A stretch of DNA of 64,000 bases. Origin: a virus. Its lineage: Duplodnaviria > Caudoviricetes. The DNA is taken from the IMG/VR virus record IMGVR_UViG_3300026159_000398, one strand, 5' to 3'. This document shows, piece by piece, positions 12,545-60,584 of this stretch. Each line of letters opens with the position of its first letter. Positions within the stretch are counted from its first letter, which is position 1. Under the pieces are notes generated by a model. It was not told the DNA's origin. It made no database searches and worked only from the letters and a program-made list of their open reading frames with translations. Made by a program: the position numbers and the translations under genes.

Positions 12545-13082
12545 GTTTTAAATGACCAGTAACTTGGTCAATGATGGCTGATTCAGCCGGTCCAATAGCC
12601 ATACAAGTGGTAGTTGGCTTGCTGACTTTGCCATCACCATCACATCTTATGCATTTAAGTTCCATTGTGCTAGTGGCGCAAGAAACGCCAGTACCAAGGC
12701 AAACAGGACAAGTGTCAAAGAATTCGGTTTTGCCTGCATCCTCAATGACTGCAAAAGGAAGATCGAGAAAAGCCGCTTTATTGCGTAATTCGTAAAGTTC
12801 TTCCAGCGAACCAACACCTAAAACAATTTTAGTAAAAAGTCCATCAAGCCATTTATCCCAATCAGAATTGGGGTCGTACATGAGTGACTTGATTTTGATG
12901 TCTTTTTGGTATGTTGGACCTATTTTATTTGATTGTTCATTGACCAAAAACACAGGAACAACTTTGCATTCAGTACTCATACGGTCAAGAAGTACTTTCA
13001 TTGATGCGTGAGCTACTTGTGCACCTATTTTGCCTTTACGCATATTCAAATCGGTTCTTACGACTATAACTTGCTTTACCAT
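12537..13082 (-). CDS. pth2: Peptidyl-tRNA hydrolase type 2 with inserted CxxCxGxG zinc finger
   Basis: KQVIVVRTDLNMRKGKIGAQVAHA, KIVL, DAGKTEF and TCMAIGP. Confidence 0.92.
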   Translation of the reverse strand: MVKQVIVVRTDLNMRKGKIGAQVAHASMKVLLDRMSTECKVVPVFLVNEQSNKIGPTYQKDIKIKSLMYDPNSDWDKWLDGLFTKIVLGVGSLEELYELRNKAAFLDLPFAVIEDAGKTEFFDTCPVCLGTGVSCATSTMELKCIRCDGDGKVSKPTTTCMAIGPAESAIIDQVTGHLKPI

Positions 13083-13399
13083 GGAAAAACACTCCCGCAA
13101 TAATTACATTTTGATTTTCGTTCTGTTGGAGCACCACAACCAGGACATTTTTCAGGTCTTTTTTCTTTTTGTATTTGCCCGCGTTTATAGAATGGATTTA
13201 CTTGTAATTCACTATTGAATTTTCTTCCACCTAAATCCATCGGCTCATAACCTGCTTCTTTCATACGTTTATCTGTATCAGCTGAAGACATATTGTTGAC
13301 CCATTGTGTAGCCAAATGTCTAGCAACTGCTTCACGTTGAGCCATTGGTCCTATGAGTGGTTTTGGTGTTGTTGGTTTTTTGTTACTGAAGAATCTCAT
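13076..13399 (-). CDS. Hypothetical protein with C-terminal zinc ribbon
   Basis: CPGCGA..CNYCG. Confidence 0.65.
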   Translation of the reverse strand: MRFFSNKKPTTPKPLIGPMAQREAVARHLATQWVNNMSSADTDKRMKEAGYEPMDLGGRKFNSELQVNPFYKRGQIQKEKRPEKCPGCGAPTERKSKCNYCGSVFPW

Positions 13400-13599
13400 A
13401 TCACTCCGCTACGCAATAAATTATTCGTCCATTGATCAAAACGAATAAAAACTTCGCTTTGATTATTTGGACATCTATGATACCGTAAAACTTCTGTTAT
13501 GTAAATATCAGGTTCACAATTTGAGAATCCATAATATTCGACATTCTGAAAGCAACCAGTCAATAATAGACAAATGAAAATTATTTTCTTCATTACCAA
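13396..13599 (-). CDS. Putative lipoprotein
   Basis: MKKIIFICLLLTGC lipobox. Confidence 0.55.
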   Translation of the reverse strand: MVMKKIIFICLLLTGCFQNVEYYGFSNCEPDIYITEVLRYHRCPNNQSEVFIRFDQWTNNLLRSGVI

Positions 13600-13606
13600 A
13601 GTTCTT

Positions 13607-14269
13607 TTAAATTAGTTTATTGATTCTATTTTGAATTAGTCCGCGTGAACATCCCAGTTGATCAGCAATTTGTCTTTGTGTTTTACCACAATCTAATAAT
13701 TTTAAAATCATTTCATCTTTAATGTTTTTTTTGCGATATATTGAAGCAATTGTTTTCATTTTTTCTTTTTCTATTGGATTTGAAAATCTTTTTTGTTGTG
13801 CTATTTTCATATTAACTGTATTGGCTTTTTTTACTTTTAATGATTTTCGCCATTTTAGATAATCTTTTTTAGATAATTTGTTAATTCTATCTTTTTGAGC
13901 AATTTTTTGTGAATTGCTCATTTTAAGCAAGCTTTCTGTTGAATGTTTATGACCAAAATTTCCTGATTTAGCCTTTGGAGTTAAATTATAACCATAAATT
14001 TCATCATAGTTTTGGCCATCACTTCCATAAGCACGATAAAAATATATACATTCTGTTTCAGCTTTATCTAATTCTTTTTTATTTTTACACAATCCAATAA
14101 TTCTTTTTTCTAAATGATGATGACGAGTTTTTATTATTTCTTTTATTTGTTTGCCTGAACCAAAATATTTAGTAGTTTTAATAGGGTCTCCAAGTTTTTG
14201 TCCTACATAAACTTTGTGTGTATAATGATCAAGTATTAAATAAATATAACCAAAAGATTTTTTAGACAT
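13607..14269 (-). CDS. GIY-YIG homing endonuclease (NUMOD3 + C-terminal HTH)
   Basis: GYIY..VYVGQ..YFGSG..GYN. Confidence 0.88.
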   Translation of the reverse strand: MSKKSFGYIYLILDHYTHKVYVGQKLGDPIKTTKYFGSGKQIKEIIKTRHHHLEKRIIGLCKNKKELDKAETECIYFYRAYGSDGQNYDEIYGYNLTPKAKSGNFGHKHSTESLLKMSNSQKIAQKDRINKLSKKDYLKWRKSLKVKKANTVNMKIAQQKRFSNPIEKEKMKTIASIYRKKNIKDEMILKLLDCGKTQRQIADQLGCSRGLIQNRINKLI

Positions 14270-14315
14270 AATGATTGTTTCTCCAATATGATTATATTAT
14301 CTTTTGGTAAATATA

Positions 14316-15335
14316 TTAAATAATTTTTTTTAGTTTCCATAGTAATTTGGCTTTATAGTCCCAAAAATGAATTCTTTCTTTAAAATCAAATTTTATTCCT
14401 TTTTCGGCTAATGTGCCAAAATCTTTTTCATTTAAACCTTTATAATCGAATACATAGACTCCGGGTTGATTATGTTCGGTCAACCATTCGGCCCATTTCC
14501 ATCGAGCATTACGGCCGGCGTCATCATTGTCGAAAACAAGAATTACTTTATTAAGTTTCTTAGCAAGAATCTTTTTAAATTGTTCTTCAGTTCCGACACC
14601 GAACATCGCAACGCCATTAGGACGTTGGATTGCATCAAAACAAGCTTCAAATACTGCGCAAGTGGTGCTGAGATTGTCAAGATTCCAGATCGGAAAAACA
14701 TTTTCACCTCTACTTTTCTTCCATAATAATGGACTTTTGTTTTTAATATCTCGTCCTGCATAGAAGATTAAATTGCCATCTTCATACACAGGAAAAATTA
14801 TTCTGTTCTCTTCTTTATTGACAAATAGAACCGTCTTTTTGATGCGATCTTCTGGAACTTTTCTAGCTCGCAAATAATCAGCATATTCAGTATGGACTTT
14901 AGCGTTAAATTTCTCAAACGTATCTGGAATATTTATGTCGCTGACTTCTGCACGTTCAGAAACAAATAGACAACGAGGTTTGCTGTTACCAAGCATCTCT
15001 TTGATGTCAACGCCAACCATGTAGCGTCCAATAAACCATTGCTTGGCTTCTTTAACTGAATTAAGGTGCATTACCATTTTAACGAATTTGAAAAATTCTC
15101 CATGGTAATCTGAGCCATAAAGAGCTGCAGCCTTGAAGCCATTAAAGACTACAATCTTTTTGTCGTCTACTTGCTTGACGCCAATGCCACACCTCCATTT
15201 TCGGTCATTTGTACCCCATGAAGGTGGTTCATTGATTTGAATTCTCCAAGCCTCAGGGTCGCTCTTTGCGATTTTATAAGGCCCGAGATTTTCGTCAGCA
15301 ATAAAATTTACAACCGCATCTAGTGGTATAAACAT
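14316..15335 (-). CDS. DNA primase (T4 gp61-like, TOPRIM)
   Basis: RIIFP..GR, FEACFDA, VFDNDDAG and KDFG. Confidence 0.9.
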   Translation of the reverse strand: MFIPLDAVVNFIADENLGPYKIAKSDPEAWRIQINEPPSWGTNDRKWRCGIGVKQVDDKKIVVFNGFKAAALYGSDYHGEFFKFVKMVMHLNSVKEAKQWFIGRYMVGVDIKEMLGNSKPRCLFVSERAEVSDINIPDTFEKFNAKVHTEYADYLRARKVPEDRIKKTVLFVNKEENRIIFPVYEDGNLIFYAGRDIKNKSPLLWKKSRGENVFPIWNLDNLSTTCAVFEACFDAIQRPNGVAMFGVGTEEQFKKILAKKLNKVILVFDNDDAGRNARWKWAEWLTEHNQPGVYVFDYKGLNEKDFGTLAEKGIKFDFKERIHFWDYKAKLLWKLKKII

Positions 15336-23707: not shown

Positions 23708-25324
23708 TCATATCTTTCCAGCAACAAATTCACTTATTACTCGAGGCGCATTTGCATCAAATCCTACGATGTCCAACATTCCAGCATCATTTGGGTCAGC
23801 AATTGAGAATCCATTACTGTTCATACCCACAACGATCAGACGAGCATCATGAACAAATTGGTTACGGTATTGTTTCAATGCTTGCACAGGTTGAATATTT
23901 CCAGCCCATGTTTCATTGTCTGTGTAGACGATGAAAGCATCAAACATATATTTCTTTTCTTTTGCCCAAATCATTGGCAATGCGCAATCTGTTCCTCCGA
24001 AATTGACACCATCAACTTTGTTCAAAATGGCTTCAAAACTCATGTTTGGAGTAATGTCAAGTTTTTGGAATCTGTTGTTGAAAGCCATGATTGTGTATTC
24101 TTTTTCAACACGAGCAGTTACCATAGCCATCAATGCTGAACATTCAGCACATGTTAAAATTCCACTTGAAATTTCAGAACTCATAGAGCCTGATACGTCT
24201 ATTCCAAGAAGCATTCTTTTTCCAGAAGGCTCAATTGTTTTGAAGCTCAAGTAAAACGCTTGTTCAAGAGCATCAACAATTTTTCGCACTGGAGTCCATG
24301 TCAAGTTGCCTCTGAAGCCACGACCCATGCTATAAGTTTTTTGAGCGAGAAGAATATCCATAGGGTGAATACGGCTTTTCTTTAGATACGCTTCATCTGT
24401 GATTTTACTTACGACCATGCTCACGTATTCATTTTGGCCACTATCAAGAACTCCAATAGAAGTCAGACGATTCAAGTTGCGAATGAGAGCCTTCAGAGGA
24501 ATATCTTTCAAAGCTGCTTTCCATACTGCGACATTGTTTTTTATCTCAGTTGGCCATGCATCTTGAGGAATCTTGTGCTCAGCGATCAATTCAATAGAAC
24601 GCTTGACATCTTCTGCACGAAGAGACTTCAATTCTTCGGTTGCATAAACCAAAGGAAGATCTTCTGTAAACTCGTTCTTTACGGCATACTTAAACAACTG
24701 TGCGTGCACAGGAGTCATAGGTTTGACGTGTGCAGAACGCAGAATATCTTTGTGTGTCCATTGGTTCTCTGTTCCTTGAACAGTACGGCCTGCATATTTG
24801 ATCATTTGATATTCAAGTTTTGTTGGGTCCATTGAATACCAGTTGCCAAATGCGTTACGAATGGCACGTCCCCAGCTTCTCAGATCGTCAATGTACTGGG
24901 CAAATGTAAACATGTGTGTTCCAGTACGGCAAATCTCAGGGAACATTCTCGATGCCGCATGTTTGATTATCTTGTCGTCTGTTTCTGAAAACAAAACTGC
25001 AAGCAGCATAATTGCTGGGTCATTCTTGTGTGCACGGCCTTCGACAGAAATATTGTACAGCATTGTAAGAACTTTTCCTGCATCTTCCTTAATGCAAGCA
25101 ATGCTGTTCTTGATATTCTCTTTTGTCAGTTTGTTTTCACGTATGTAGTAAGTGCCGCCCTCACTTCCGAGAATCAGGAATCTTTCAAGACGTTTCCATT
25201 TGTCAAGTGCAAATGAGAATCCACCGGCTGAGTTGGCAACCATGTCTGCCTCACGACCTGGTATAGGTTTTGATTGAGGAGTAACAGTTTTCTTTGCTTG
25301 ACTGTTTGTGTAGTTGTGTGCCAT
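23708..25324 (-). CDS. rsr: Ro60/TROVE domain RNA-binding protein
   Basis: NSAGG, RFLILGSEGGTYY, W.HKDILR..H; vWA DVSGSM, GGTDC.LPM and YTDNETW. Confidence 0.96.
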   Translation of the reverse strand: MAHNYTNSQAKKTVTPQSKPIPGREADMVANSAGGFSFALDKWKRLERFLILGSEGGTYYIRENKLTKENIKNSIACIKEDAGKVLTMLYNISVEGRAHKNDPAIMLLAVLFSETDDKIIKHAASRMFPEICRTGTHMFTFAQYIDDLRSWGRAIRNAFGNWYSMDPTKLEYQMIKYAGRTVQGTENQWTHKDILRSAHVKPMTPVHAQLFKYAVKNEFTEDLPLVYATEELKSLRAEDVKRSIELIAEHKIPQDAWPTEIKNNVAVWKAALKDIPLKALIRNLNRLTSIGVLDSGQNEYVSMVVSKITDEAYLKKSRIHPMDILLAQKTYSMGRGFRGNLTWTPVRKIVDALEQAFYLSFKTIEPSGKRMLLGIDVSGSMSSEISSGILTCAECSALMAMVTARVEKEYTIMAFNNRFQKLDITPNMSFEAILNKVDGVNFGGTDCALPMIWAKEKKYMFDAFIVYTDNETWAGNIQPVQALKQYRNQFVHDARLIVVGMNSNGFSIADPNDAGMLDIVGFDANAPRVISEFVAGKI

Positions 25325-26216: not shown

Positions 26217-26453
26217 TTATTTCCTTACCATTACTTTACAATTTCTCATTATCGATGTAGAAAAACAATATGTTTTTGAATAATCTGTATTTTGGCGACA
26301 AATTGTTGATTCTTTGATTGCAACTTTGTATTCTTGTTCTGAACATTTATATTCTTCAAGAGCATAGTTGTAATTTGTTCCAACTTCATGTCCCAGACAA
26401 CCAACAAAAAATAGTAAACAAATAAACAATAGTGCTTTTTTCATTACTTCCAC
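26217..26453 (-). CDS. Putative lipoprotein
   Basis: MKKALLFICLLFFVGC. Confidence 0.55.
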   Translation of the reverse strand: MEVMKKALLFICLLFFVGCLGHEVGTNYNYALEEYKCSEQEYKVAIKESTICRQNTDYSKTYCFSTSIMRNCKVMVRK

Positions 26454-27577
26454 CTTTTCATTTTTGACGATATTGGCGAATGGCTTATAAATACATCAAC
26501 AATCTTGAATTTCCTTTTGAGAGTGAAAAAAATCCATGATACAAATTGATCTTCATCATCAAAATAGATTATTTCACCATCGTGTATAAGCCGCCATTCA
26601 TTCTCAATGCAATCAAGGCATGTAATTACCAGATTGAAAGGAACATTTCGTAAATAAGCATCTTTATAAATGCCATATTCAAGCCAATCATAATCAAGAA
26701 GCCCTACTCTGAATTTACCTTGCGGCGAATCATCAAAGTTTTGTTCAAACGGATTTGGCTTGATATTATGAGGAATATGTTCAGTTGGGTGCGGACCATT
26801 TCCATGACGAGTATGGTACGCTCGAGTGACAATCCAAGGAAAAGGCGTATATTGAACAAAATTCCTGCTTCCTGTGTTGGAAGGAGTCACATGCGGAAAA
26901 AATCCATTATGTTGGTCAAGAAGCAATCCTTGGGAGCCTTCATAAATAAGACTTTTGAATTCTTTGCCTTTTCTATCTTTTGTAAGATTGTCAGGTGCCA
27001 TTTTTACAAAAGGATTATTCGTAATAATGAAGCTTGCGTTCAGAAAATTCTTCACATATTCAGTATCATATTCGCATTTATAGTGTTTAGCAATAAGCTT
27101 CAATTTTTCATGAAGAACAGATTGATAAAATAAATCTTCAAATTTTAGATGATAAAAGTTTTCTTCACGACGGTATGTCGCGTTGATTCCAAGCCCGCAA
27201 CTTCCATGAGCATTTTGGCTTTCTGCTATTCTGCCAGCTCCAATATCGTATGGAGTTGTCACAGGACAGCGGCGATCAATGTAGAGTTCGGGTTCAATGC
27301 CCATTTTCATGAGCATATCAAGTTCGACTAAAAGAGCTACGGGGTCAATGGTACACTCAGGGAACCAATAAGTCGGAATTCCTCTGAGTGTACCACTGCC
27401 GAAACTTGAGAACACATGGCTAGTTTTTTCATCTACAACAACTTGATGACCTGCCTGTTGGCCTCCGCAGTAACGTACCACAAGCGGGCGTTTTAATTTC
27501 TGACAAAGGTAGTCAACAACCATACCTTTCCCTTCATCACCAAAACCTGCGCCAATTACTGCGTTGCTAACATTCAT
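26444..27577 (-). CDS. purA: Adenylosuccinate synthetase-like protein
   Basis: GFGDEGKG, GGQQAGH, HGSCG.G, EGSQGLLLD and TRHGNGP. Confidence 0.88.
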   Translation of the reverse strand: MNVSNAVIGAGFGDEGKGMVVDYLCQKLKRPLVVRYCGGQQAGHQVVVDEKTSHVFSSFGSGTLRGIPTYWFPECTIDPVALLVELDMLMKMGIEPELYIDRRCPVTTPYDIGAGRIAESQNAHGSCGLGINATYRREENFYHLKFEDLFYQSVLHEKLKLIAKHYKCEYDTEYVKNFLNASFIITNNPFVKMAPDNLTKDRKGKEFKSLIYEGSQGLLLDQHNGFFPHVTPSNTGSRNFVQYTPFPWIVTRAYHTRHGNGPHPTEHIPHNIKPNPFEQNFDDSPQGKFRVGLLDYDWLEYGIYKDAYLRNVPFNLVITCLDCIENEWRLIHDGEIIYFDDEDQFVSWIFFTLKRKFKIVDVFISHSPISSKMKRWK

Positions 27578-28491
27578 TAAAGTATGATCTCCTGTTTTGT
27601 TGTGTTGTTTGTTCCTGCTGTGTTGCTCATATTAGGGATATCGCCTTGACGATTTTTGACAATAATGTCAGAAATAATTCCATCGATATCCTTGTGACTG
27701 TCTGCAACAAATAAATGATCTTTAAGAATCTGTTTCCAATCATCTACCGTTGATGACATACTTCCTGCATACGTTTCTACCACGTGAATGTGATAGCATT
27801 CGTATTTCTTGGAAGCTTCTGCAAGCAATTCTTCTGTGGTAAAATCATGATATTGGCCAGGGCCCATGATTCTTTCGAGATCGCGTGCATTAAGAGTCTT
27901 CAAAACTGGCTCATCACCAATCGTTATGAGAATTCCTTTTTTGCCGCGTTTTTCGAAACAATCGATGGAGGTATGGAATGCTGCAAAATACCATGCCAAC
28001 ATGTAGCTTTCACCAGTGTTTCCACCACCACGGCCTTCAAGCCAGGTGTCTCCGAGCCAGTTGTCAAGAAGCTCATCACTTGTTTCAAACTGACCAACCT
28101 GAAGAGGTGCCGAATCGCATGTGTGGTCACCTATCGCAAGAAATAAAACTTGAGGATGCTTTATTCCTTTTTGATAAATCTTGTTCATGATGTTAGGGAG
28201 TCCCTTCTTTATCATGAAATTAGGAACAGAACCCATCGAACCAGTAACATCAAGTGCGATAATTATCGCATCAGATTCAGGGTGTTCTTCAGAATCACGC
28301 GATTCACGAATTTTTACGCCATTGGGATTCATGCTCGCCTTCATGCCATGAGCATCATAAAGGCGATTATTATCCAGCATATCAAAATCGGCCATGTTGT
28401 CGACTTTGAATTTGCTTTTGAGGCGCAAATTACGAGGGTTGAGTTCAGCATCTCCTACGTAATTGACGATCGAATAACTTCCGTGACCCAT
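27577..28491 (-). CDS. vWA domain protein
   Basis: ALDVTGSMG MIDAS, GGGNTGESY and IGDE. Confidence 0.82.
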   Translation of the reverse strand: MGHGSYSIVNYVGDAELNPRNLRLKSKFKVDNMADFDMLDNNRLYDAHGMKASMNPNGVKIRESRDSEEHPESDAIIIALDVTGSMGSVPNFMIKKGLPNIMNKIYQKGIKHPQVLFLAIGDHTCDSAPLQVGQFETSDELLDNWLGDTWLEGRGGGNTGESYMLAWYFAAFHTSIDCFEKRGKKGILITIGDEPVLKTLNARDLERIMGPGQYHDFTTEELLAEASKKYECYHIHVVETYAGSMSSTVDDWKQILKDHLFVADSHKDIDGIISDIIVKNRQGDIPNMSNTAGTNNTTKQEIIL

Positions 28492-29595: not shown

Positions 29596-30237
29596 TTATA
29601 TTGGTGCGGCAGGTCCTATGTTTAGGAAAAAAGTGGGCCAGCGCTTCTTAAATTCCCAAAGCAAAGGAATCATAATGCGCTTCATGTCTGGGTGGGCGGC
29701 GTCTGCGGTTCTTAATTCAAAGATATGACGCCATTCGCGGATATTAGCTTTTACGACAATTTCAGTCTTCAAATCATTTGGTAGGATGCCCCTCGCTGCG
29801 TTAGGCGGCAAGCCAGCGGCAATCATTTTCATGTACATTTCTTCAACCGCAATAAGAGTTTTAATGTAATCATTAAGGACTACACTCCCTTCACTTCCGG
29901 TAAGCCAATACGGATTTATGAATGTAATCTCATTACCAAATTTGTCTTTTGAGTAGTTGCAATAACGGGTGCTTTCTTGTGCGAAGCTGCACATACGATG
30001 GCGGACAATCTCATGTGTAAATCCACGATTATGAATGAATCGAACAGTGATGTCTGCAAATTCAATCATGGCTTCATGGCCACGTTTGATTATGTTTTCT
30101 ACAAAATGTTCTGCAGAATCTTCTGTGATTTTGTCTTCGGATTTGTAGCAAGTCCTTGCTGCACATTCAATTGCTTGAAGAAGAATTTCGGCGGTGCTAT
30201 CTATGAGGATGTGAAAACTCGGCTCTATTAACTGCAT
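29596..30237 (-). CDS. thyX: Flavin-dependent thymidylate synthase
   Basis: HEIVRHRMCSFAQESTRY, ARGILP and NIREWRH. Confidence 0.95.
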   Translation of the reverse strand: MQLIEPSFHILIDSTAEILLQAIECAARTCYKSEDKITEDSAEHFVENIIKRGHEAMIEFADITVRFIHNRGFTHEIVRHRMCSFAQESTRYCNYSKDKFGNEITFINPYWLTGSEGSVVLNDYIKTLIAVEEMYMKMIAAGLPPNAARGILPNDLKTEIVVKANIREWRHIFELRTADAAHPDMKRIMIPLLWEFKKRWPTFFLNIGPAAPI

Positions 30238-37659: not shown

Positions 37660-37733
37660 AGACGCGGATGGGACTCGAACCCACACAAAACAGTTTTGCA
37701 GACTGACCCATTATTCCATTCTGGTACCGCGTC
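37660..37733 (-). tRNA. tRNA-Cys(GCA)
   Basis: Loop CU-GCA-AA, U73. Confidence 0.9.
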
Positions 37734-39459
37734 ATGAATAATCTACTTCACTGAATTTGAATCCTTTGTTTTGAAATAGATCAATACAAATATCAACTAA
37801 TTCAGCATTATATTTTGTGCCTCTGCCATCGCGTAATTCTTGAATAGCAATATCAATTCCGAGAGCCGGACGATATGGTCTATGAGAAGCGATAGCTTCA
37901 ACAATATCTGCAATACAAATAATTTGTGCACCTAAAAGAATTTGATTTTCTTTTAATCCTTGTGGATATCCCGAGCCGTCTATTTTTTCATGGTGCTGAT
38001 AAATCATTTCAGCAATTGGCCAAGGAAAATCAATCTTCTTTAAAATATCATAACCATCTTTTGCGTGCATTTGAATCAATTGAAATTCAATGCTATTAAG
38101 AGATGATGGTTTTGCAAGCAATTCAGATGGAACTCCAAGTTTTCCAATATCATGAATACTGGCTGCGAGTTCTATTCCTTGAATATCTTCAAAATCAAGA
38201 CCTTTGGCTTTGGCTATCTCTTTCGCAAGTTCTGCAACTCGCAATTGATGGCCTGCAGTATAAGAGTCTCGAGTATCAACAACCAATCCAAGAGCTTGAA
38301 TAATACCACTCAACGTTCTTTGAAGTTTATATTCAGCTTCTTTTTTCGAAGTAACATCAATCGAAAAATTCAATGTTGCTGGCTTGCCTTTCCATTCAAC
38401 GCGTGAAGAAGTTATTTCAACCCATTTAATATTACCACGAGTATCTTGTACTCGAAAAGCGTAATTAGTTGGGACATCTTCTCCGTTTAATCTGCGTTGA
38501 TATCGATCAAAAACAAAACCTAAATCTTCTTTATAAATAACTTCAGATACTTTTTTATTGGCAATAATTTCTTCTGGCGGACATTCCATCAATTTTCCGA
38601 ATGCCGGATTTGCCAATGTAAAACCATCTTCTTGTGCAACAAAAATTGCTATTGGTGCGTCTTTAAAAAGTCGAACATAATCTTCTTCGGTCTTTTTCTT
38701 TTCTGTAATGTCAATACCAAACGACAACGTTCCAATAACTTTTTCAATAACCTTTACAAGAGTATTGCGCCAAAGAATGTATTTTTCTTGTCCGTCTTTG
38801 GTTAATATGGGATTTTCGAATTCGTATGGAATTCCCTTTTCTGTCAGTCTGTCAAACTGTTCCCATATTTCTGGATATTTTTCTCTCGGAACAAAAATTT
38901 CAAGAACTTTTTTATTCTTTACTTCATCAAACTTATACCCAGTAATTTCTTCAGCTGCTTTATTAAAAATAACGGCTCTTGCGTTATGATCAAGCATGAG
39001 AATCATTGTATTAGCGTGTTGAATTAAATCATCTGCAAATTCTTTTGCTAATCGCAGTTCTCTTTCTGTCTGCTTGGCGACTGTAACATCATGAATGATT
39101 CCTAACAAAAATTCTTCTTCAGCGATTTCAATTCGCGTCAAGAATATTTCTGTCTCAATCATCTTTCCTTCAAAATCAATACAAGTCCAATCATATTGTT
39201 GATTTTCAATTTGAGCAACTTGAATGATGCACTTACATTTATCTTCCGATAATTGTCCGTCTTTTTGATATTTTGGAGAAAGTTGTACAGGTGTTAAACC
39301 AATCAAATCCTCTCTTTGACATTTAAACATCTTTTCTGCTTGAGGATTGCAATCGACTATCATGTCACCCGCAAGAATTAAAATAGCGTTTGGTGTTTTA
39401 TCAAACAGCAAACGATATCGTTGCTCTGATTCGAGCAACTTCTTTTTCAGCTGTTCCAT
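37732..39459 (-). CDS. PAS-PAS-PAS / HD-GYP cyclic-dinucleotide phosphodiesterase
   Basis: Three PAS/PAC repeats (..HDVT, ..IDIT, ..IDVT); YTAGH, HDIGK, HHEKIDGSGYP and RPYRPA. Confidence 0.93.
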   Translation of the reverse strand: MEQLKKKLLESEQRYRLLFDKTPNAILILAGDMIVDCNPQAEKMFKCQREDLIGLTPVQLSPKYQKDGQLSEDKCKCIIQVAQIENQQYDWTCIDFEGKMIETEIFLTRIEIAEEEFLLGIIHDVTVAKQTERELRLAKEFADDLIQHANTMILMLDHNARAVIFNKAAEEITGYKFDEVKNKKVLEIFVPREKYPEIWEQFDRLTEKGIPYEFENPILTKDGQEKYILWRNTLVKVIEKVIGTLSFGIDITEKKKTEEDYVRLFKDAPIAIFVAQEDGFTLANPAFGKLMECPPEEIIANKKVSEVIYKEDLGFVFDRYQRRLNGEDVPTNYAFRVQDTRGNIKWVEITSSRVEWKGKPATLNFSIDVTSKKEAEYKLQRTLSGIIQALGLVVDTRDSYTAGHQLRVAELAKEIAKAKGLDFEDIQGIELAASIHDIGKLGVPSELLAKPSSLNSIEFQLIQMHAKDGYDILKKIDFPWPIAEMIYQHHEKIDGSGYPQGLKENQILLGAQIICIADIVEAIASHRPYRPALGIDIAIQELRDGRGTKYNAELVDICIDLFQNKGFKFSEVDYS

Positions 39460-52754: not shown

Positions 52755-52778
52755 AAAAAATCCGCCAGGAAGGCGGAT
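52755..52778 (-). terminator. Intrinsic terminator
   Basis: AUCCGCC-UUCCU-GGCGGAU-UUUUU. Confidence 0.8.
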
Positions 52779-53281: not shown

Positions 53282-53830
53282 TCAAACATATAAATCACAC
53301 TCCACATGGTTTAATCTCAACAATGGAATTCCATCATCTTCACTTCTGTTATATTTTTCAGCATAGACGACTTGCTTGACTCCTGCAGCAATCAGCAATT
53401 TTGCACATTGCATGCAAGGAGAAATAGTAAGAAAAATTGTAGAACCGTTTGTTTCAATTCCATTTCTTGCTGCATACCCAATTGCATTTTGTTCAGCATG
53501 AAGCTCAAACATTTGTGAAAATGTGCGATGTAAATTGTAAAAAGTATCAGACTTTAAGAAGTCATCGTATGTTGGATAAATATATTTGTTGAGCATCCAA
53601 TCAAAATCGAAAGCTCTGTATGTCGCATTTTCTGCATGGCTTGAGGTATTCCAAATTCTATGGAAAAAATCTTTGCATTCTTCTTGGCCGCTTGGAACTC
53701 CATTATAACCACATGAGATTATTCGACGATCTTTTGTCAGAACCGCACCAACTTGTACACGAACACAAGTTGAATGTTCAGCCATCTTTTGGGCTATTTC
53801 AAGAAATGTTTCATCCCAATTTTTTTTCAT
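53282..53830 (-). CDS. dCMP deaminase
   Basis: STC.R..VGA, GYNG, HAEQNAI and SPCMQC. Confidence 0.93.
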   Translation of the reverse strand: MKKNWDETFLEIAQKMAEHSTCVRVQVGAVLTKDRRIISCGYNGVPSGQEECKDFFHRIWNTSSHAENATYRAFDFDWMLNKYIYPTYDDFLKSDTFYNLHRTFSQMFELHAEQNAIGYAARNGIETNGSTIFLTISPCMQCAKLLIAAGVKQVVYAEKYNRSEDDGIPLLRLNHVECDLYV

Positions 53831-54558
53831 TCGTACACCAATGCCTCAGGGTCGTACCCTTCAACAATTTTCTTCAGCAAATCAAAGTGCCTTTCGTAAA
53901 CATGGAAACTTCCAGCAAACCAGATCAATTCTCCATATTTCAATTCAGGATACGTCAATGCCAATGTTTGATAAAGTTGTTTGTAAATGTAACATGCCCA
54001 ATAAAAGTCATTGAAGAATCCAAACACTGCATCATTGCTTCGAATAGAATAGATACTTATGAGCTTGTTGTCGCGAATCAAGAATTGATTCGAAATTGTG
54101 CACATAAAATCATGCATTCCATCTCGACAGCAATCTTCATGCATTGAAGGACGTGTGTAAATCATCAATGCTTGACGGCTGCTTTTGTCTCGTTGAAGAG
54201 TCTTGACACAATTATTAAATTGATCGCCATTCTCTTCAGAAAAAACACACCATCCATAATTGCTGTTGACGTAACCACCTTTATCTGCTACTTGTTGCCA
54301 AATTTTGATATCATCAACATGTCCACAAATACTGAGGTCCATACTGAGATACCAATTCAATTCTTTTTCACAGTAGGCTTCATTGGTTCTTTTTGCTCCA
54401 AAATCCAAAATAGGATATGCTGGATTCAGACGCATCATAGAACCAACAACTTCTACTGTTTTTGTAGAACCACTTTCTACAAAGTTGCCAGCAATCAGTT
54501 TCGAATAAAGCTCGCGAAATACTGGCATCACCATTTCTTCATTAGAGTAAAGTGACAT
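53827..54558 (-). CDS. dCMP hydroxymethylase-like (T4 gp42 family)
   Basis: IWQQVA, NSNYGW, IYTRPSM, DFMCT, RSND..FGF.ND and GSFHVYERHF as in gp42, with the cytosine-specifying Asp. Confidence 0.9.
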   Translation of the reverse strand: MSLYSNEEMVMPVFRELYSKLIAGNFVESGSTKTVEVVGSMMRLNPAYPILDFGAKRTNEAYCEKELNWYLSMDLSICGHVDDIKIWQQVADKGGYVNSNYGWCVFSEENGDQFNNCVKTLQRDKSSRQALMIYTRPSMHEDCCRDGMHDFMCTISNQFLIRDNKLISIYSIRSNDAVFGFFNDFYWACYIYKQLYQTLALTYPELKYGELIWFAGSFHVYERHFDLLKKIVEGYDPEALVYE

Positions 54559-55780
54559 CTCCTATTTCCACTCCTATAAGTCTCTTTATATCGTTTACGA
54601 CAACTTTCGCTACATTTTCAAAAGCACTTTGTCCATTGCGAATTCTGATTTGACGAGGCATATCTGATTCAAAAAAATCTTTGTATGTGTCAAGCGCTTT
54701 GTTCATGACTTCCATCAGATTGGAAAAATCATTCTTGACATAGTAAGGATAATGTTTTCCTTGAATTCTTTCGTATTCAAAAACTTTAGGTGTGATGGTA
54801 ATATTACGACAATAAATTGATTCACGATGTGCGCAACCACCATAACGCTCAAGTGTGTAGCCATGAAAACTTATTTTAGAACCCCATAGAAGTCCAAAAT
54901 ATTCCTTGCGAGTAAGAGGTTGCCCATTGTTATGAATATGCAACGCTGGTACCAGCTTCTTGAGGCCCTCCCAATCTGCCTTTTGAGATGGATTGGTGAA
55001 CACTACTTGAAAATCTTGGCGCTGTTCATAAAGAGCATTCACTGCCGAAATAAATTCATGATGATGAGTATAATTGATGTCACTCAAACGATTCAAGAAA
55101 AGAATTGTCGGTTTTTCAAGTTTAGGCCTTTCATGATCAAGAGCTTCACATTCTGAATAACCAAAATCCCAAATGACGCTTTTGGCTGCAATTTTCTTTA
55201 TGAATGATTTGTTGAAAACTTGCTTGGCGTTCTGGAAAAATGCTTCTTTGGTTGATGGACATGTGAAAACGCAAATGTCGCTGCATTCCATACCATCAAA
55301 TTGGCGCCACATGTAGGCAATTTCTTCAGGAACCTTAGGCTCACCAATCATTGGCGTATCCAGCCAGTAACAGCATGTGATCAGTTTTGCATCATGTTTT
55401 TTGTAATGCAAATATGTCTTGATGTTCCTTGATTGCTCAGTGATATTCGACCACACAATATCAATGTGAGGAAGATGATTAAAAAGTAAATCAAACATTT
55501 TTACATCGAAATGTTGACGATTAAGAAATGCATCCACAACAAATGGATATGAGACGAAATGGACTTGAGGGTCGTCCATGATATCTTCGTACCGATTTAA
55601 GTCTGCGAAATTCTCGATATAGTCAATGAGAACATACACATGCAGATCAGGATTGCATCGCGTGAGACGATTGAGAATTCCAACCATCATGTTGATATTG
55701 GAATCTGCAGTCAGCCATTTTCCTTCTTTGTTATAAATCGATTGTTGAAGAATGTAAAGAATGTTTATTTCTTTTCCCAT
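54542..55780 (-). CDS. Putative glycosyltransferase (GT-B-like)
   Basis: 412 aa; ILFLNRL..Y.HH, EY..LL and ERYGG..RESI GT-B-like C-terminal motifs; position next to gp42-like gene. Confidence 0.65.
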   Translation of the reverse strand: MGKEINILYILQQSIYNKEGKWLTADSNINMMVGILNRLTRCNPDLHVYVLIDYIENFADLNRYEDIMDDPQVHFVSYPFVVDAFLNRQHFDVKMFDLLFNHLPHIDIVWSNITEQSRNIKTYLHYKKHDAKLITCCYWLDTPMIGEPKVPEEIAYMWRQFDGMECSDICVFTCPSTKEAFFQNAKQVFNKSFIKKIAAKSVIWDFGYSECEALDHERPKLEKPTILFLNRLSDINYTHHHEFISAVNALYEQRQDFQVVFTNPSQKADWEGLKKLVPALHIHNNGQPLTRKEYFGLLWGSKISFHGYTLERYGGCAHRESIYCRNITITPKVFEYERIQGKHYPYYVKNDFSNLMEVMNKALDTYKDFFESDMPRQIRIRNGQSAFENVAKVVVNDIKRLIGVEIGDVTLL

Positions 55781-56301
55781 TGTATAAAATCCTTGATAAT
55801 TTTTATTTGCTCTTCTAAGTCTTCATTGGTTGTATTGAGTCGAAGTATTTTTTCCTGATGTGGAAGCAAACTTAATGTGGCTTCATACAACATTTTCAAC
55901 CCAAAGACTTCTTCTTCTTTAACATATTCGTCTTCGAACTTTTCCTTGAATCCATCTTTGTGGCAATAAATAATATAGAAGTCAGGAAAAATGCAATACG
56001 CTTTATGAAGTTCATTGAGAAATTCAATGTCAGTTTCGCGATTATAAAGAGTAGAATAAACTCTTTCGCAAACATAATTGCGATCACGAATCATTGAAAA
56101 TCCTATTTGATTAAGAAGAGAATATTCTAGTAAGCCTTCTGCGTGAAGTTTCGCTATGTTGGCTATTGGATTATTCGTATGATACTCTGCATTTGTGGGG
56201 TTATTGAAATACGGAATCTTCAATCGAGAAGATAATTCTTTTGCAATTGAAGTTTTTCCTGCATTGTCATGTCCGACGAAATGAATTATAAATTGTCTCA
56301 T
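55765..56301 (-). CDS. dNMP kinase (thymidylate kinase-like)
   Basis: GHDNAGKTS and IRDRNYVCERVY. Confidence 0.82.
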   Translation of the reverse strand: MRQFIIHFVGHDNAGKTSIAKELSSRLKIPYFNNPTNAEYHTNNPIANIAKLHAEGLLEYSLLNQIGFSMIRDRNYVCERVYSTLYNRETDIEFLNELHKAYCIFPDFYIIYCHKDGFKEKFEDEYVKEEEVFGLKMLYEATLSLLPHQEKILRLNTTNEDLEEQIKIIKDFIQWEKK

Positions 56302-57017
56302 ATTCTCCTCTGTAAAACAAACATGAAGTCACGCGATAATGTTGGATAATTTATAGCAGTTAAAACTCTTGCCATCTGATTTGGAAGAATATTAGCAAAA
56401 TATGATTCAGGGTCGTCAGTCTTTTGAACTATAAAATCAAACATTTCATCGGACATGCTCCATCCAAAAAAATCTATAACTTTAAAACGAGATTTCAAAA
56501 ACCATAAACCAATTATTTCAAAAGATGAATATTCATATTTATGATATTCTGGCCAATTGATTTGTTCATCAATTGAATTTGGCGTGCTTATGAAAAGAAA
56601 CCCACCAGGTTTTACAACATCACAAGCAATTTGTAATGCTTCAATACCTTGTTCTTTGTTGTCGAAATGTTCGATGACATCGAGCATCAACACACAATCG
56701 TAAAGATCACCACGATCAACACATTCTTTCAAAACTTGGATAGTGTCAATTGCCAAAATAAATCTGCGGCCTTGACGTTCAAAAAACTCAGGATTGATAT
56801 TGATGTTGACATCTACTCCGGTGTATTCAAAAATATAATTATCATATTCAAGAAGTCCCGCCATGTAACCAGTATCGCAGCCAATATCAAGAATTTTGGT
56901 GAGTCTATTTTCTTTGATGGTTTTACGGACATACTGGTCTTTCACGAATTTACAGAAATAACCAGGGTCCAAATCCATTTTAGAAAGTTCTTTTCTTAAT
57001 TCACTTGCTTGTTTCAT
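56298..57017 (-). CDS. Class I SAM-dependent methyltransferase
   Basis: ILDIGCDTG, GVD, DVIEH and KPGGFLFISTPN. Confidence 0.88.
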   Translation of the reverse strand: MKQASELRKELSKMDLDPGYFCKFVKDQYVRKTIKENRLTKILDIGCDTGYMAGLLEYDNYIFEYTGVDVNININPEFFERQGRRFILAIDTIQVLKECVDRGDLYDCVLMLDVIEHFDNKEQGIEALQIACDVVKPGGFLFISTPNSIDEQINWPEYHKYEYSSFEIIGLWFLKSRFKVIDFFGWSMSDEMFDFIVQKTDDPESYFANILPNQMARVLTAINYPTLSRDFMFVLQRRI

Positions 57018-57565
57018 ATTTCATATCTATGGAGAATTATATTGATTTGTTCGCTCTGTTGTTTAGAAATAATTCGAGGTCCACGAGAAATGTATGATGG
57101 ATGATAGAATTTCTCAACAGGAATATCGAGCTTCATCAATCGCAATGTAGTGAGTGCCTCATTACCAAAACACATAATCAATTTTGGTTTGATGATGTCT
57201 ATTTGACGTTGAAGATATTCATTACAATTGGCAATTTCATCGCCAGTTAATGGTGAATTTATTGGTGACGAACACTTGCAAATATTGCAGAAAAACATTT
57301 TGTTCATCACAATTTCTTTACCAAGATTTTGAAGAAGGTATTTGCCAATTTTGCAGCGAAGCCATAAGTCTTCATAATCATCAATGAATTTGTTGACATC
57401 AATGTGGTTGTTCTCAAGGCCTGGATTTCGCATGACAACCATAAGTGTAAGATTTTCAGGTTTGCCATAATAGACATGAGGCCAGGGAATTAAACTCGCT
57501 GACCTCAGCCTTTGGCATTTTGAGCAATTAAAAATTTCTTGTTCGAGTTGTTTTAATTTTTGCAT
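57014..57565 (-). CDS. Uracil-DNA glycosylase family 4/5-like protein
   Basis: CSKCQRL, RNPG, NICKC, EIANC and YHPS. Confidence 0.8.
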   Translation of the reverse strand: MQKLKQLEQEIFNCSKCQRLRSASLIPWPHVYYGKPENLTLMVVMRNPGLENNHIDVNKFIDDYEDLWLRCKIGKYLLQNLGKEIVMNKMFFCNICKCSSPINSPLTGDEIANCNEYLQRQIDIIKPKLIMCFGNEALTTLRLMKLDIPVEKFYHPSYISRGPRIISKQQSEQINIILHRYEI

Positions 57566-57754
57566 AAAGTTTCTTTTTTAAATTATCGAATGGGAAAAAA
57601 ACATATTTTCTCCATAAATATGTTCTTGTCCAATAAAACCACGTTCTGAAAGTTTGTTGGCCTGCTCCTCCACAATAAATACAATTTAGTGGATTTTCTT
57701 TGTGGTATAGGGCATCAAGCCCATCTTTGCCACTACCTTTGCATGACCAACATT

Positions 57755-58804
57755 TCATATCATCCCTTTGTCAATGGCATCCATGTACCAAGGAATCAGT
57801 AAATCAAGTGATGCATCAAGAGAATATTTTGCTTCGAATCCGAGAACTTCTTTTGCTTTCGTCGTATCGGGAATTCGACACTGGACATCATGATCGAAAC
57901 CTGGGTCATACACAATTTTAAAATCTTGTGGATGAAACATTTTCATTTGAATTTGGCACATCTTGGTTTTGATTTTATACGCAAGATCATTGACACAAAT
58001 TCCTTCTTTGGTGCTGATGTTGAATGATTCGAACATGGCTTTGTCACTTTCCATGACGGCCAAAATTCCATCAGCGATATCTTCAGCGTATGTGTAATGG
58101 CGAATTTGTTTGCCAGTTCCAAGAATATGAAGAGGATTTTGCTCTTTATAAATCTTATTGATCAGATCAGGAACCACATGGCTCATTGCAAGCTTGATAT
58201 TTCCTGACATGATTTCTTTGTCGTTCTTGGCACGAATTTCGCCAGTTCCTACACAGTTGAAAGGAAGAATAAGTTTGTATGGTAACTTGTATTGCTGATA
58301 CGCGCCCTTGCAAAAGTATTCTACTGCGAGTTTTTGGAATCCATACGTCGTGATTGGAGGCGGAATCCTGAACTCATCACCTTCTTTTGAAGGAAACTCA
58401 GTTGCAGTTTCATACACCATGCTGGATGAAATTGCAATAACATGATTGAGATTGCCATATTGTTTGGCGTAAATCGCTGCATCAAAAGATGAGGCGTTAA
58501 TGCGCTCATTTTCTGCAAGAAGAAAATAAGCTTCAGCGTTGAACATGGAAATTCCACCAATAATGGCAGCACCCATGACGAAAATGTCGATATGTTGATT
58601 GATTAAAACTTCTTTCAACAAATTGACATCTTTGGCATCTCCATAAATATGAAGATAATTCGGATGATTGTCAAAAGTACGTTCAACTTGACCATACTTC
58701 CAATCGTTGTCGAGTCCTACGACTGCATATCCTCTATCAAGAAGTTTTTGAATTGCGTATCCTGCAATAAAACCTCTGTCTCCTGTCCATAAAACTTTTT
58801 GCAT
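57755..58804 (-). CDS. NAD-dependent nucleotide-sugar epimerase/decarboxylase (extended SDR)
   Basis: TGDRGFIA, SSSMVY, YGFQK and G.G.Q.R..TY..D. Confidence 0.88.
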   Translation of the reverse strand: MQKVLWTGDRGFIAGYAIQKLLDRGYAVVGLDNDWKYGQVERTFDNHPNYLHIYGDAKDVNLLKEVLINQHIDIFVMGAAIIGGISMFNAEAYFLLAENERINASSFDAAIYAKQYGNLNHVIAISSSMVYETATEFPSKEGDEFRIPPPITTYGFQKLAVEYFCKGAYQQYKLPYKLILPFNCVGTGEIRAKNDKEIMSGNIKLAMSHVVPDLINKIYKEQNPLHILGTGKQIRHYTYAEDIADGILAVMESDKAMFESFNISTKEGICVNDLAYKIKTKMCQIQMKMFHPQDFKIVYDPGFDHDVQCRIPDTTKAKEVLGFEAKYSLDASLDLLIPWYMDAIDKGMI

Positions 58805-58806
58805 AA

Positions 58807-60042
58807 TTACCTCTGAATTATTATCTTGTTCATTCCAAGAACATTCCAAATGTCTACAATAATAGCCCCTTTCTTGAAGTTGTTCAAGGAAAGATTTTTG
58901 AATTCTTTGTGATTCATGGCGATGAAAACCACATCACAAAAAATCATAACTTCTTTTTCATGATAGACCCAGAATTTCATGTCATTATCTTTGTCATCAT
59001 ATTCGCCATCAATACCACCGAAATTTGGTTCAGCGATCATGATAGATTTAGGACTCAGACGATCAATGTAACGAATCATCTTCGGCACAAGACTGTCACG
59101 AGTATCATCGGTGTCGGCTTTCATTGTATATCCAAGAACACCGACATTTGCATTCCAGATTTTGTCTTGAACGAGATCAACATAAAACTTAGGCATGAAT
59201 TCGTTGACTTTGTACGCTTGAACGAGAAGATCGGAATGCGGCATGTTTTCGGATATCATGCCAAAATCTTTTCGAAGACAAGTTCCGGCTGCAAATCCAG
59301 GTTTTTTAAGACCATTGTTACGAGGATAATCCTCATTCATGATATCAAAAACTTGAAAAACATCTGCTCCAAATTTATTCGTCAGATATGTGAAATAGTT
59401 TGGAATTGCGAAATTGATATAACGATAAATATTGCAGAGCAGTTTCGAAAGTTCCGCTTCAATAAAATTGCACGGTTTGATTTTGACATTAAAACCAGCA
59501 AAAAGCTCTTTTGCTTTTACTTGAGATGGAACATCTTCGGCGCCGATGATTTGAGGAAGTTCGTAAAGTTCATCGAGTGAGTCGCCTTCAACAATTCGTT
59601 CGGGACACATTGCAATGTAATAATCACGGCCACGATGAAGTTGAGTCGCTTGTAGAATATAGTCAACAAGTTTTGTTGTGGTGCCAGGCGCGACTGTCGA
59701 ACGAAGAATAATCAATCGACCTTCAATTTTATTTTGTTGAATAAGAACATCAATGACACCTTTGATATGAGACAAATCAGTCTCAATATGCTGCATAAGT
59801 GGTGTGCCAACTGTGATGATATACGCTTTTGCATCTTCAGGATTGTAATGAATGGGAACATTGAATCCTTTGTCCATCAGTTCCTGAAAACCAGGTTCTT
59901 CGAATGGCATTTTTCCATTATTGACAAGATCGGAAGTGCGAAGATTCGTATCACAACCGACCACATTTAGACCGTTCTTTTTCAACGCGATTGCAAGAGG
60001 AAGTCCAACCCTACCGCAACCAATTACGCAAACGTCATACAT
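58807..60042 (-). CDS. UDP-sugar 6-dehydrogenase (Ugd/WecC family)
   Basis: GCGRVGLP, VGTP, RSTVAPGTT, PER..EG, AELSKL..N, GTCLRKD and K..TDD.RDS. Confidence 0.92.
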   Translation of the reverse strand: MYDVCVIGCGRVGLPLAIALKKNGLNVVGCDTNLRTSDLVNNGKMPFEEPGFQELMDKGFNVPIHYNPEDAKAYIITVGTPLMQHIETDLSHIKGVIDVLIQQNKIEGRLIILRSTVAPGTTTKLVDYILQATQLHRGRDYYIAMCPERIVEGDSLDELYELPQIIGAEDVPSQVKAKELFAGFNVKIKPCNFIEAELSKLLCNIYRYINFAIPNYFTYLTNKFGADVFQVFDIMNEDYPRNNGLKKPGFAAGTCLRKDFGMISENMPHSDLLVQAYKVNEFMPKFYVDLVQDKIWNANVGVLGYTMKADTDDTRDSLVPKMIRYIDRLSPKSIMIAEPNFGGIDGEYDDKDNDMKFWVYHEKEVMIFCDVVFIAMNHKEFKNLSLNNFKKGAIIVDIWNVLGMNKIIIQR

Positions 60043-60053
60043 TGTCTAACTCC

Positions 60054-60584
60054 TTAACAGTGATGAATAAGATTTGTTTGTTTGTCTATGTAATAACAAT
60101 CTCTGTTGTTATTTGATTCAAGAGCAAGATTAAAGACCTCAATTTCTTTTGTGGTATCGAAAGTTATGACACCTTTGACTTTTTTCAGAACCACTTTCTT
60201 GCCTTCCATAAAGAACAGTTTTGTCCAAGGCGAAATGGTATTGGCTTTTCCAAGATAAAATTCACCTTCGATTTCCATAGGAATTTTATGGTCTTCGGTA
60301 CATTCGAAATAGATTTCATTTTCAAAATCAAAAACAAGGCGAATCATGCCGTTGTTATATGGGCGGCGAGTGGCGTGCAGAACTTTTTTGCGAACATCAA
60401 CGCCAACCTTTTGGTCGAATGAATCAACGAAATATTCTTCATCTTCATGAAAAATACTGGCGAAACGAATCATGGTTATCTCTTCGCCTTTTTTGGTTTC
60501 TTCGTCTCTGAAGATTGTGATAGTGCGGTCGCCAGGAATACAGCAGGCATTGTAAATATTTTTATAAGCTTTGTAGATTTTCAT
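60054..60584 (-). CDS. Stand-alone Hint (intein-like) domain protein
   Basis: Block A CIPGD, block B CTEDHKI, block F VFNL, terminal IHHC. Confidence 0.65.
   Translation of the reverse strand: MKIYKAYKNIYNACCIPGDRTITIFRDEETKKGEEITMIRFASIFHEDEEYFVDSFDQKVGVDVRKKVLHATRRPYNNGMIRLVFDFENEIYFECTEDHKIPMEIEGEFYLGKANTISPWTKLFFMEGKKVVLKKVKGVITFDTTKEIEVFNLALESNNNRDCYYIDKQTNLIHHC

Follow-up and report, generated by a model that had tools for sequence, protein, structure and literature searches.

The 64,000-nucleotide stretch of viral DNA analysed here (IMG/VR record IMGVR_UViG_3300026159_000398, hereafter the window) carries on its minus strand, between positions 53282 and 60042, nine co-oriented open reading frames (ORFs), most of them overlapping. 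These probably constitute a cassette for the pre-replicative replacement of cytosine by 5-hydroxymethylcytosine (5hmC), followed by the post-replicative glycosylation of this base with a sugar acid that the phage itself would make. The argument is built on gene identities, protein folds, the signature residues of a thymidylate synthase (TS)-fold enzyme and a synteny conserved among metagenomic phages; from these we infer the substrates of all the enzymes, which sugar is used, what a methyltransferase acts on and the role of a protein resembling uracil-DNA glycosylase (UDG). We are far less confident about the exact sugar than about the overall mechanism.

In the proposed pathway the TS-fold enzyme would convert deoxycytidine monophosphate (dCMP) to 5-hydroxymethyl-dCMP by folate chemistry that is independent of oxygen. 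A thymidylate kinase (TMK)-like enzyme would raise this product to the diphosphate, host enzymes would complete 5hm-dCTP, and the phage polymerase would incorporate it, while a dCMP deaminase would supply dUMP to a separate flavin-dependent thymidylate synthase (ThyX) for the formation of dTMP. A dehydrogenase and a C4-epimerase-like member of the short-chain dehydrogenase/reductase (SDR) family would turn a host UDP-hexose or UDP-N-acetylhexosamine into the epimer of a UDP-(N-acetyl)hexuronic acid, which a GT4-like glycosyltransferase (GT) of the GT-B class would move onto the hydroxymethyl group of 5hmC in DNA. Where present, as it is here, a UbiG/Hen1-like methyltransferase may O-methylate or methyl-esterify the attached sugar, and the iron-sulfur (Fe-S) UDG-like protein would most likely excise uracil or 5-substituted uracil, arising from deaminated cytosine or 5hmC, from the modified genome.

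Gene content and conservation of the cassette

The genes were identified by family searches with Pfam, PHROG and NCBIfam/TIGR models. Read along the minus strand, the cassette begins with a 411-amino acid nucleoside diphosphate (NDP)-sugar 6-dehydrogenase (58807-60042; PF03721, PF00984 and PF03720) and an extended SDR resembling NDP-sugar epimerases (57755-58849; PF01370, 107 bits). There follow a 76-amino acid ORF (57528-57758), an Fe-S protein of the UDG superfamily (57014-57565; PF03167, 48 bits, and family-4 models), a class I S-adenosylmethionine-dependent, O-methyltransferase-like enzyme (56298-57017; PF13489, 59 bits), a P-loop nucleotide kinase of TMK/deoxynucleoside kinase type (55765-56301; phrog_761 thymidylate kinase, 1.9e-8), the 412-amino acid glycosyltransferase (54542-55780; no Pfam match, assigned with AlphaFold2 and Foldseek), the TS-fold dCMP hydroxymethylase (53827-54558; PF00303, 68 bits; phrog_160, 151 bits) and a dCMP deaminase (53282-53830; PF00383, 84 bits; phrog_174, 177 bits) in which the HAE and PCxxC zinc motifs are intact. 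Neighbouring genes overlap by 4-43 nucleotides. The probable start of the SDR is M16 at 58804, which is backed by homologue lengths and alignment and gives a protein of 349 amino acids; if it is correct, a gap of 2 nucleotides separates the SDR and dehydrogenase genes. The eight gene types named in the original prediction, made from the letters of the window, are thus all present on the minus strand where it had placed them, the 76-amino acid ORF being an addition to its list. The separate ThyX gene that it had reported at 29596 was also confirmed (29596-30237, minus strand; PF02511, 149 bits).

For the synteny survey the ORFs of contigs encoding GT homologues were searched with the proteins of the window, yielding 49 distinct metagenomic loci in which every partner match is co-oriented with the GT gene. 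Eighteen loci are well flanked, extending 5 kb or more upstream and 2 kb or more downstream of the GT. Among these the TS gene is found in 17, the kinase and the SDR in 16 each, the dehydrogenase in 13, the UDG-like protein and the dCMP deaminase in 11 each, and the methyltransferase in four; a homolog of the T4 gp56 dCTPase occurs in three, and flanks the cassette in five of all 49 loci. The phage backbones are unrelated, and include the T4-like phage of the window, a 178-kb contig with a DnaE-type polymerase and a contig of 732 kb. Since the same genes recur co-oriented in 49 loci the arrangement is not due to chance, and since composition and order are kept across different genomes the cassette is taken to be a functional unit.

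This conserved synteny ties the sugar genes to the GT, TS and kinase genes, and so to DNA rather than to the cell surface; the earlier suggestion that the phage makes its own donor for the glycosylation of DNA is accordingly still the best reading. It is also our main argument against another division of labour, in which the TS-fold enzyme and kinase would make 5hmC DNA while the dehydrogenase, SDR, methyltransferase and GT served virion proteins, the host envelope or a small molecule, the linkage reflecting a shared block of early expression. GT4-like enzymes act mostly on lipids, proteins and small molecules, and in a survey of phage contigs with a GT gene about 65% had no base-modification enzyme next to it (Pyle et al., bioRxiv 10.1101/2023.12.21.572611). 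Nevertheless we give this alternative little credence: the TS and kinase genes flank the GT in nearly every sufficiently long locus, in an order kept in unrelated backbones and with overlapping frames; the UDG fold, that of a DNA-binding enzyme, lies inside the block and is in one case fused to the methyltransferase; and the kinase-GT-TS triad has been experimentally tied to DNA glycosylation in RB69, Acinetobacter phage DLP3 and Rhizobium phage RL38J1 (Lee et al., NAR 2026, PMC13326640).

The predicted base, its sugar and their enzymes

TS homologs of phages modify cytosine in more than one way. In RB69, DLP3 and RL38J1 the homolog synthesizes 5-hydroxy-dCMP in a reaction that depends on flavin and O2, and the sugars are linked straight to 5-hydroxycytosine (PMC13326640). 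The same study defines the discriminating residues (E. coli ThyA numbering): N177D specifies dCMP rather than dUMP as substrate, an acidic residue in place of Leu143 (L143D/E) gives access to water and a non-methyl product, and D169N specifies hydroxylation (PMC13326640). The TS protein of the window was therefore aligned with E. coli ThyA, T4 gp42 and RB69 gp48, all taken from annotated records. Its signature of C146, D143, D169 and D177 is that of T4 gp42; RB69 gp48 served as a control and has N169 in the same alignment, as published, where the window protein has D169 (RSND). Among the cassette TS homologs C146, D169 and D177 are kept in 12 of 12, and D or E143 in 11 of 12. The window protein is 44-49% identical to the dCMP hydroxymethylases of T4-like phages (phmmer with T4 gp42, 3.5e-52), whose genes are the nearest relatives of its own. 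With gp42-like residues, and with the D169N signature absent, it is predicted to be a gp42-type enzyme producing 5-hydroxymethyl-dCMP, and the predicted base is 5hmC; the diagnostic residues thereby lend support to the gp42-like activity first proposed for it.

Two other products were considered and rejected. The gene order kinase-GT-TS, as in RB69, DLP3 and RL38J1, had suggested 5-hydroxycytosine, but the window protein and all 12 homologs retain D169; the dCMP deaminase had suggested a dUMP hydroxymethylase making 5-hydroxymethyluracil, but position 177 is Asp.

The kinase had no match in the Protein Data Bank (PDB) by sequence. Its AlphaFold2 model (pLDDT 91.9) has thymidylate kinases, deoxynucleoside kinases and the prophage protein YorR (3kb2; TM-scores 0.68/0.71) as Foldseek neighbours, and the motifs GHDNAGKT (a GxDxxGKT P-loop) and DR73-74 are invariant or nearly so in 26 homologs. 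With 22 bits against TIGR00041, far under the cutoff, it is not a Tmk orthologue. TMK/YorR-like neighbours have also been reported for DLP3 gp78 and RB69 gp45 (PMC13326640), and RB69 gp45 weakly detects three of the cassette kinases (L013-L015). The protein of the window is a predicted 5hm-dCMP kinase. At one other locus (L024:7023-8009, plus strand) an HNH-like zinc-finger region of about 160 amino acids stands in frame ahead of the cassette kinase, probably through the insertion or fusion of a homing-endonuclease gene there.

The dehydrogenase possesses all three UDPG_MGDP_dh domains, and its catalytic Cys255 lies within the sequence GTCLRKD. The only model that it passes is the subfamily TIGR03026 (255 bits). 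Its best PDB matches are to the UDP-N-acetylmannosamine (UDP-ManNAc) dehydrogenases Cap5O [3ojl; 154 bits] and 4r16 [142 bits], the dehydrogenases of UDP-glucose and GDP-mannose scoring 48-96 bits; similarly, BLASTP aligned E. coli WecC over its full length with 129 bits and Ugd with 50 bits, both at ca. 24% identity. Judged by these similarities the nearest clade is that of the UDP-ManNAc dehydrogenases rather than Ugd. The family named in the original prediction, a UDP-sugar dehydrogenase, is thus correct, and can be refined to a protein nearer to WecC and Cap5O than to the UDP-glucose dehydrogenases.

The SDR displays the motifs TGDRGFIAGY, SSSMVYE and Y169xxxK173, and its active-site motifs are invariant in 12 cassette homologs. 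At the end of the corresponding strand 4,6-dehydratases carry T-D-E, and the decarboxylases UXS and ArnA carry T-S-E, in which the Glu is the acid/base, together with YxxxK. The SDR possesses neither the decarboxylase nor the dehydratase motif and has S-S-S in their place, for which reason dehydration and decarboxylation are both disfavoured. Its nearest structures are C4-epimerases, namely Thermotoga maritima GalE (4zrm), 8rdg, 3icp and the UDP-glucuronic acid 4-epimerase 6zl6; of these 8rdg is a GDP-sugar 4-epimerase (PMC12171764).

The donor is on the best reading of these sequences an epimer of a UDP-hexuronic or a UDP-N-acetylhexosaminuronic acid, likelier than a pentose. Of the two continuations first envisaged for the UDP-uronic acid, the epimer gains from the affinity to C4-epimerases and the decarboxylated pentose loses through the S-S-S motif. 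UDP-xylose is in the textbook pathway made by a UDP-glucose dehydrogenase and an SDR, the C-terminal part of the SDR weakly matches an NCBIfam model for ArnA-type UDP-4-keto-pentose/UDP-xylose synthases (46 bits), and T4-like phages with pentose-modified cytosines exist. The pathway might on these grounds end in a pentose (UDP-xylose or UDP-arabinose, through decarboxylation) or in some other non-acidic sugar, giving a pentosyl-5hmC in the manner of the RB69-like phages and Shewanella phage Thanatos. We regard this as quite improbable: S-S-S is invariant in the 12 homologs where UXS and ArnA have T-S-E, the PDB sequence matches of the SDR are to C4-epimerases with no UXS or ArnA structure among them, and the isomerase, kinase and uridylyltransferase genes used by the known phage pentose pathways are absent here.

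The protein predicted to transfer this sugar acid, the product of 54542-55780, has 120 metagenomic homologs, a few of which carry the GT4 Pfam domains PF00534 or PF13692. The AlphaFold2 model, for which 40 of the homologs were used, reached a pLDDT of 94.9 and a pTM of 0.92, and its Foldseek neighbours are 7qsg, MshA (3c4q), OtsA, sucrose-phosphate synthase (SPS; 6kih), PglA and BshA, all with a probability of 1.00 and TM-scores of 0.65-0.73. E311, G315, E320, R231 and K149 are invariant in the 40 homologs; the acidic residues are spaced E-x8-E, where the canonical GT4 C-terminal motif has E-x7-E. With high confidence the modelled protein folds as a GT4-like retaining GT-B glycosyltransferase; the GT-B-like assignment, for which structure prediction and Foldseek had been proposed as the check, has thus held. 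MshA (3c4q) and SPS (6kih) have also been reported as neighbours of the base-proximal DNA glycosyltransferases DLP3 gp79 and RB69 gp46:47 (PMC13326640).

At the level of sequence no connection with the known DNA glycosyltransferases was found. A tblastn search of 50,697 phage records with the GT gave no match, hhalign of its profile with RB69 gp47 gave a probability of 0.3%, and phmmer searches with T4 beta-GT, RB69 gp46, gp47 and two Acinetobacter-phage GTs found no match in the window or the loci. The 412-amino acid protein therefore represents a separate GT-B lineage, and from its gene context it is a predicted glycosyltransferase of 5hmC in DNA.

Methyltransferase and UDG-like protein

The methyltransferase is related to generic O-methyltransferase families and to UbiG (TIGR01983, 38 bits). 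Its best PDB matches, which are weak, are to UbiG and to bacterial Hen1, which methylates the 2'-O of the ribose at the end of a nucleic acid, and its sequence contains no (D/N/S)PP(Y/F) motif of the DNA amino-methyltransferases. Occurring in four of the 18 well-flanked loci, it is an accessory part of the cassette; methylation of the sugar, as originally proposed, is in keeping with its presence in the window but would be an optional step among the relatives.

The UDG-like protein has as its best PDB match the family-4 UDG of Sulfolobus tokodaii (4zbx). F55 and N82 of the latter align with F60, the stacking Phe, and N94, the base-reading Asn, of the window protein, and the positions of the Fe-S ligands align as well (Cys14, Cys17, C96/C98 in NICKC, and Cys114). 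Motif B (H155-P-S) is kept, and both HPS and the Fe-S cysteines are conserved in the cassette homologs. The protein falls under the family-4 cutoffs (NF040953, 59 bits against 250; TIGR00758, 48.5 against 125), and motif A reads RNPG, not GEAPG: all seven aligned members have (G/M)(R/E/I)NPG with NPG invariant. GINPG and GMNPG are the motifs of MUG and SMUG1, which this xNPG resembles. Since Asn94 is kept, we argue for a uracil-type substrate, i.e. uracil itself or deaminated derivatives of 5hmC.

A different part for this protein within the modification process is suggested by several observations. In 11 of the 18 loci its gene lies within the cassette. In one locus (L031:3378-4769, plus strand) a single ORF of 463 amino acids is a fusion with the UDG-like domain at residues 7-183 and the domain of the cassette methyltransferase at 283-462; a partial protein identical to it occurs in an NCBI record of a metagenome-assembled genome (P0122). 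The fusion hints that the methyltransferase works on DNA. No other fusions of this kind were found, either in a search for longer proteins with the window protein or in one with the L031 fusion, which recovered the identical partial protein and stand-alone methyltransferases only. Furthermore, every member has xNPG in place of the GEAPG of motif A, and Brig1, whose fold is closest to the S. tokodaii UDG, excises alpha-glucosyl-5hmC, demonstrating that this fold can act on glycosylated hydroxymethylcytosine (PMC11078745). The protein could then be a base-flipping docking partner that presents the sugar-bearing 5hmC to the methyltransferase or GT, or a glycosylase for the destruction of host DNA that lacks the modification or of the differently modified DNA of competitors. 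We consider such a role doubtful. Asn94 is kept at the uracil-reading position, where Brig1, an enzyme for a cytosine derivative, has Glu in place of the Asn of uracil enzymes (PMC11078745); the dUTPase, dCTPase and deaminase genes of the same blocks fit ordinary pyrimidine hygiene; and the fusion is found in one lineage.

The 732-kb contig (L006) encodes, besides the stand-alone cassette UDG, a DnaE-type polymerase with an N-terminal UDG domain and an intein (12164-14467), and it has an extra RmlD-like SDR gene after the TS gene.

Several points weigh against the pathway set out at the beginning. The dehydrogenase fails every equivalog cutoff by a wide margin (WecC, 154 bits against 459; archaeal UDP-ManNAc dehydrogenase, 167 against 750; TuaD, 97 against 700; AglM, 98 against 670), and the SDR too lies under all cutoffs; consequently neither determines the sugar. 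An enzyme of WecC type would need UDP-ManNAc, and the cassette contains no 2-epimerase. The GT shares no sequence similarity with T4 beta-GT or RB69 gp46:47, so that DNA as its acceptor is predicted from gene context, and the UDG-methyltransferase fusion is a feature of a single lineage. No gp56-like dCTPase was detected in the 64-kb window by phmmer with T4 proteins, and full replacement of cytosine is therefore unproven. Lastly, the chemistry ascribed to the window phage and its relatives is read from genes.

Relation to known systems and neighbouring genes

The first comparison is with T4, whose hydroxymethylcytosine glucosylation system consists of the dCMP hydroxymethylase gp42, the dNMP kinase gp1, the dCTPase gp56, the dCMP deaminase Cd and alpha- and beta-glucosyltransferases, and whose pathway logic the cassette follows. 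Both phages have a dCMP deaminase and the same TS signature, the GT-B gene of the window adjoins the TS gene as beta-gt adjoins gene 42 in T4, and gp56-like genes lie beside the cassette in other phages. The differences lie in the GT, which is GT4-like and bears no detectable sequence relation to T4 beta-GT; in the donor, apparently made by the phage with its dehydrogenase and epimerase-like SDR, whereas T4 uses host UDP-glucose; in the kinase, which is TMK-like here and gp1 in T4; and in the addition of the UDG-fold protein and the methyltransferase.

With the 5-hydroxycytosine clusters of RB69, DLP3 and RL38J1 the cassette shares the order of the triad, that is a TMK-like kinase, an MshA/SPS-like GT-B and a TS homolog (PMC13326640). 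The kinases and GTs have PDB neighbours in common, the sugar-nucleotide pathway is encoded by the phage in each case, and RB69 gp45 is weakly homologous to cassette kinases. In contrast, the window protein has D169 where these TS homologs have D169N, and a hydroxymethyl link is predicted in place of their O2/flavin-dependent hydroxyl. The donor genes also differ, being a dehydrogenase and an SDR here, and an arabinose-5-phosphate isomerase, a kinase/uridylyltransferase and a phosphatase there, and the GT profile has no sequence similarity to RB69 gp47.

A third group comprises the TET/5mYOX-dependent phage clusters. Reconstitution of epimerase and GT pairs from their subclass II yielded hexuronic-acid-5hmC (433 amu), and the same survey noted gene neighbourhoods that unite a GT-B enzyme with ThyS, epimerases and dCMP deaminase (bioRxiv 10.1101/2023.12.21.572611). 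An epimerase-dependent GT acting on 5hmC with a uronic acid is thus demonstrated for these clusters and predicted for the window. Their 5hmC arises through methylation and oxidation within DNA, whereas that of the window would be formed before replication by the TS homolog; the cassette, known from genes, adds its own 6-dehydrogenase, kinase and UDG-fold protein, and sometimes a methyltransferase. Bacillus phage SP-15 is an older precedent for phage DNA bearing a uronic acid: its dihydroxypentyluracil bears glucose and phosphoglucuronolactone, and it encodes a UDP-glucose dehydrogenase and GT-B transferases (PMC5977210). In SP-15, however, the modified base derives from uracil and the link is a phosphodiester, and the gene set is unrelated and of teichuronic-acid type.

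The proposal that the window encodes a previously undescribed base modification is weakened by the TET-type pairs, which already make hexuronic-acid-5hmC (bioRxiv 10.1101/2023.12.21.572611). Our literature search found no paper combining phage DNA, uronic acid and hydroxymethylcytosine, and none combining UDG with gene neighbourhoods of a hydroxymethylase and GT. Three features are without description in the literature searched: the TS-based cassette with its own 6-dehydrogenase, the Fe-S UDG-like protein embedded in it, and the optional methyltransferase. Only tentatively would we go further, to a base that is itself undescribed, consisting of 5hmC with an epimerised hexuronic or N-acetylhexosaminuronic acid, which in the subset of phages that bear the methyltransferase, the window phage among them, would be O-methylated or methyl-esterified on DNA. 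In that case the UDG-fold protein with its MUG/SMUG-like xNPG motif may be a dedicated partner, either a base-flipping adaptor of the methyltransferase, to which the L031 fusion points, or a glycosylase for deaminated hypermodified cytosine, and not a housekeeping enzyme.

Base hypermodification determines whether a phage can escape a given restriction, CRISPR or glycosylase defence, and is a source of enzymes for the labelling of DNA. The cassette is a compact and portable module, present in at least 49 metagenomic phage loci from T4-like phages to the 732-kb contig, which apparently joins the 5hmC route of T4 to a self-supplied sugar-acid donor. Should this be true, pre-replicative pathways also reach uronic-acid glycans, possibly methylated ones; phages of anaerobic habitats would use the oxygen-independent hydroxymethyl route and not the O2-dependent 5-hydroxycytosine route; and a UDG-fold protein would be a regular companion of cytosine hypermodification. 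As a defined set of seven to eight genes the cassette can be reconstituted in E. coli.

The 76-amino acid ORF, which has the SDR and UDG genes on either side and overlaps the start of the latter by 38 nucleotides, contains two CxxCxGxG zinc-finger (zinc-ribbon) motifs with weak matches, under the cutoffs, to DnaJ_CXXCXGXG and Anti-TRAP. No homolog was found in any related locus; the ORF is specific to this phage and its relevance to the cassette is doubtful. The limits of the operon are weakly defined, the sole basis for them being weak consensus hairpins at 62753-62724 and at 52778-52760. The latter (52760-52778, minus strand) lies downstream of the co-oriented genes and, with its run of T, resembles a terminator; in the consensus scan for promoters and terminators the region held no more sites than shuffled sequence.

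Directly upstream of the dehydrogenase gene a free-standing 176-amino acid protein with a Hint/intein-like domain is encoded (60054-60584, minus strand). It has no match in Pfam, PHROG or NCBIfam, and in an Atlas structure search it resembled intein-bearing proteins with TM-scores of 0.7-0.8. This ORF is thus neither a pyrophosphatase nor another nucleotide enzyme. Family searches with the remaining flanking ORFs gave no matches.

Elsewhere in the window, and also on the minus strand, are a 377-amino acid adenylosuccinate-synthetase homolog (26444-27577), for which the phage PurZ-type phrog_1211 gives 195 bits, the PurA models ca. 129 bits and NCBIfam PurZ 42 bits against a cutoff of 300; a 304-amino acid protein of phrog_2971 (27577-28491), the start region of which is overlapped by the stop of the preceding gene; a Ro60 homolog with TROVE and vWA domains (23708-25324); and a triple-PAS protein with an HD domain (37732-39459).

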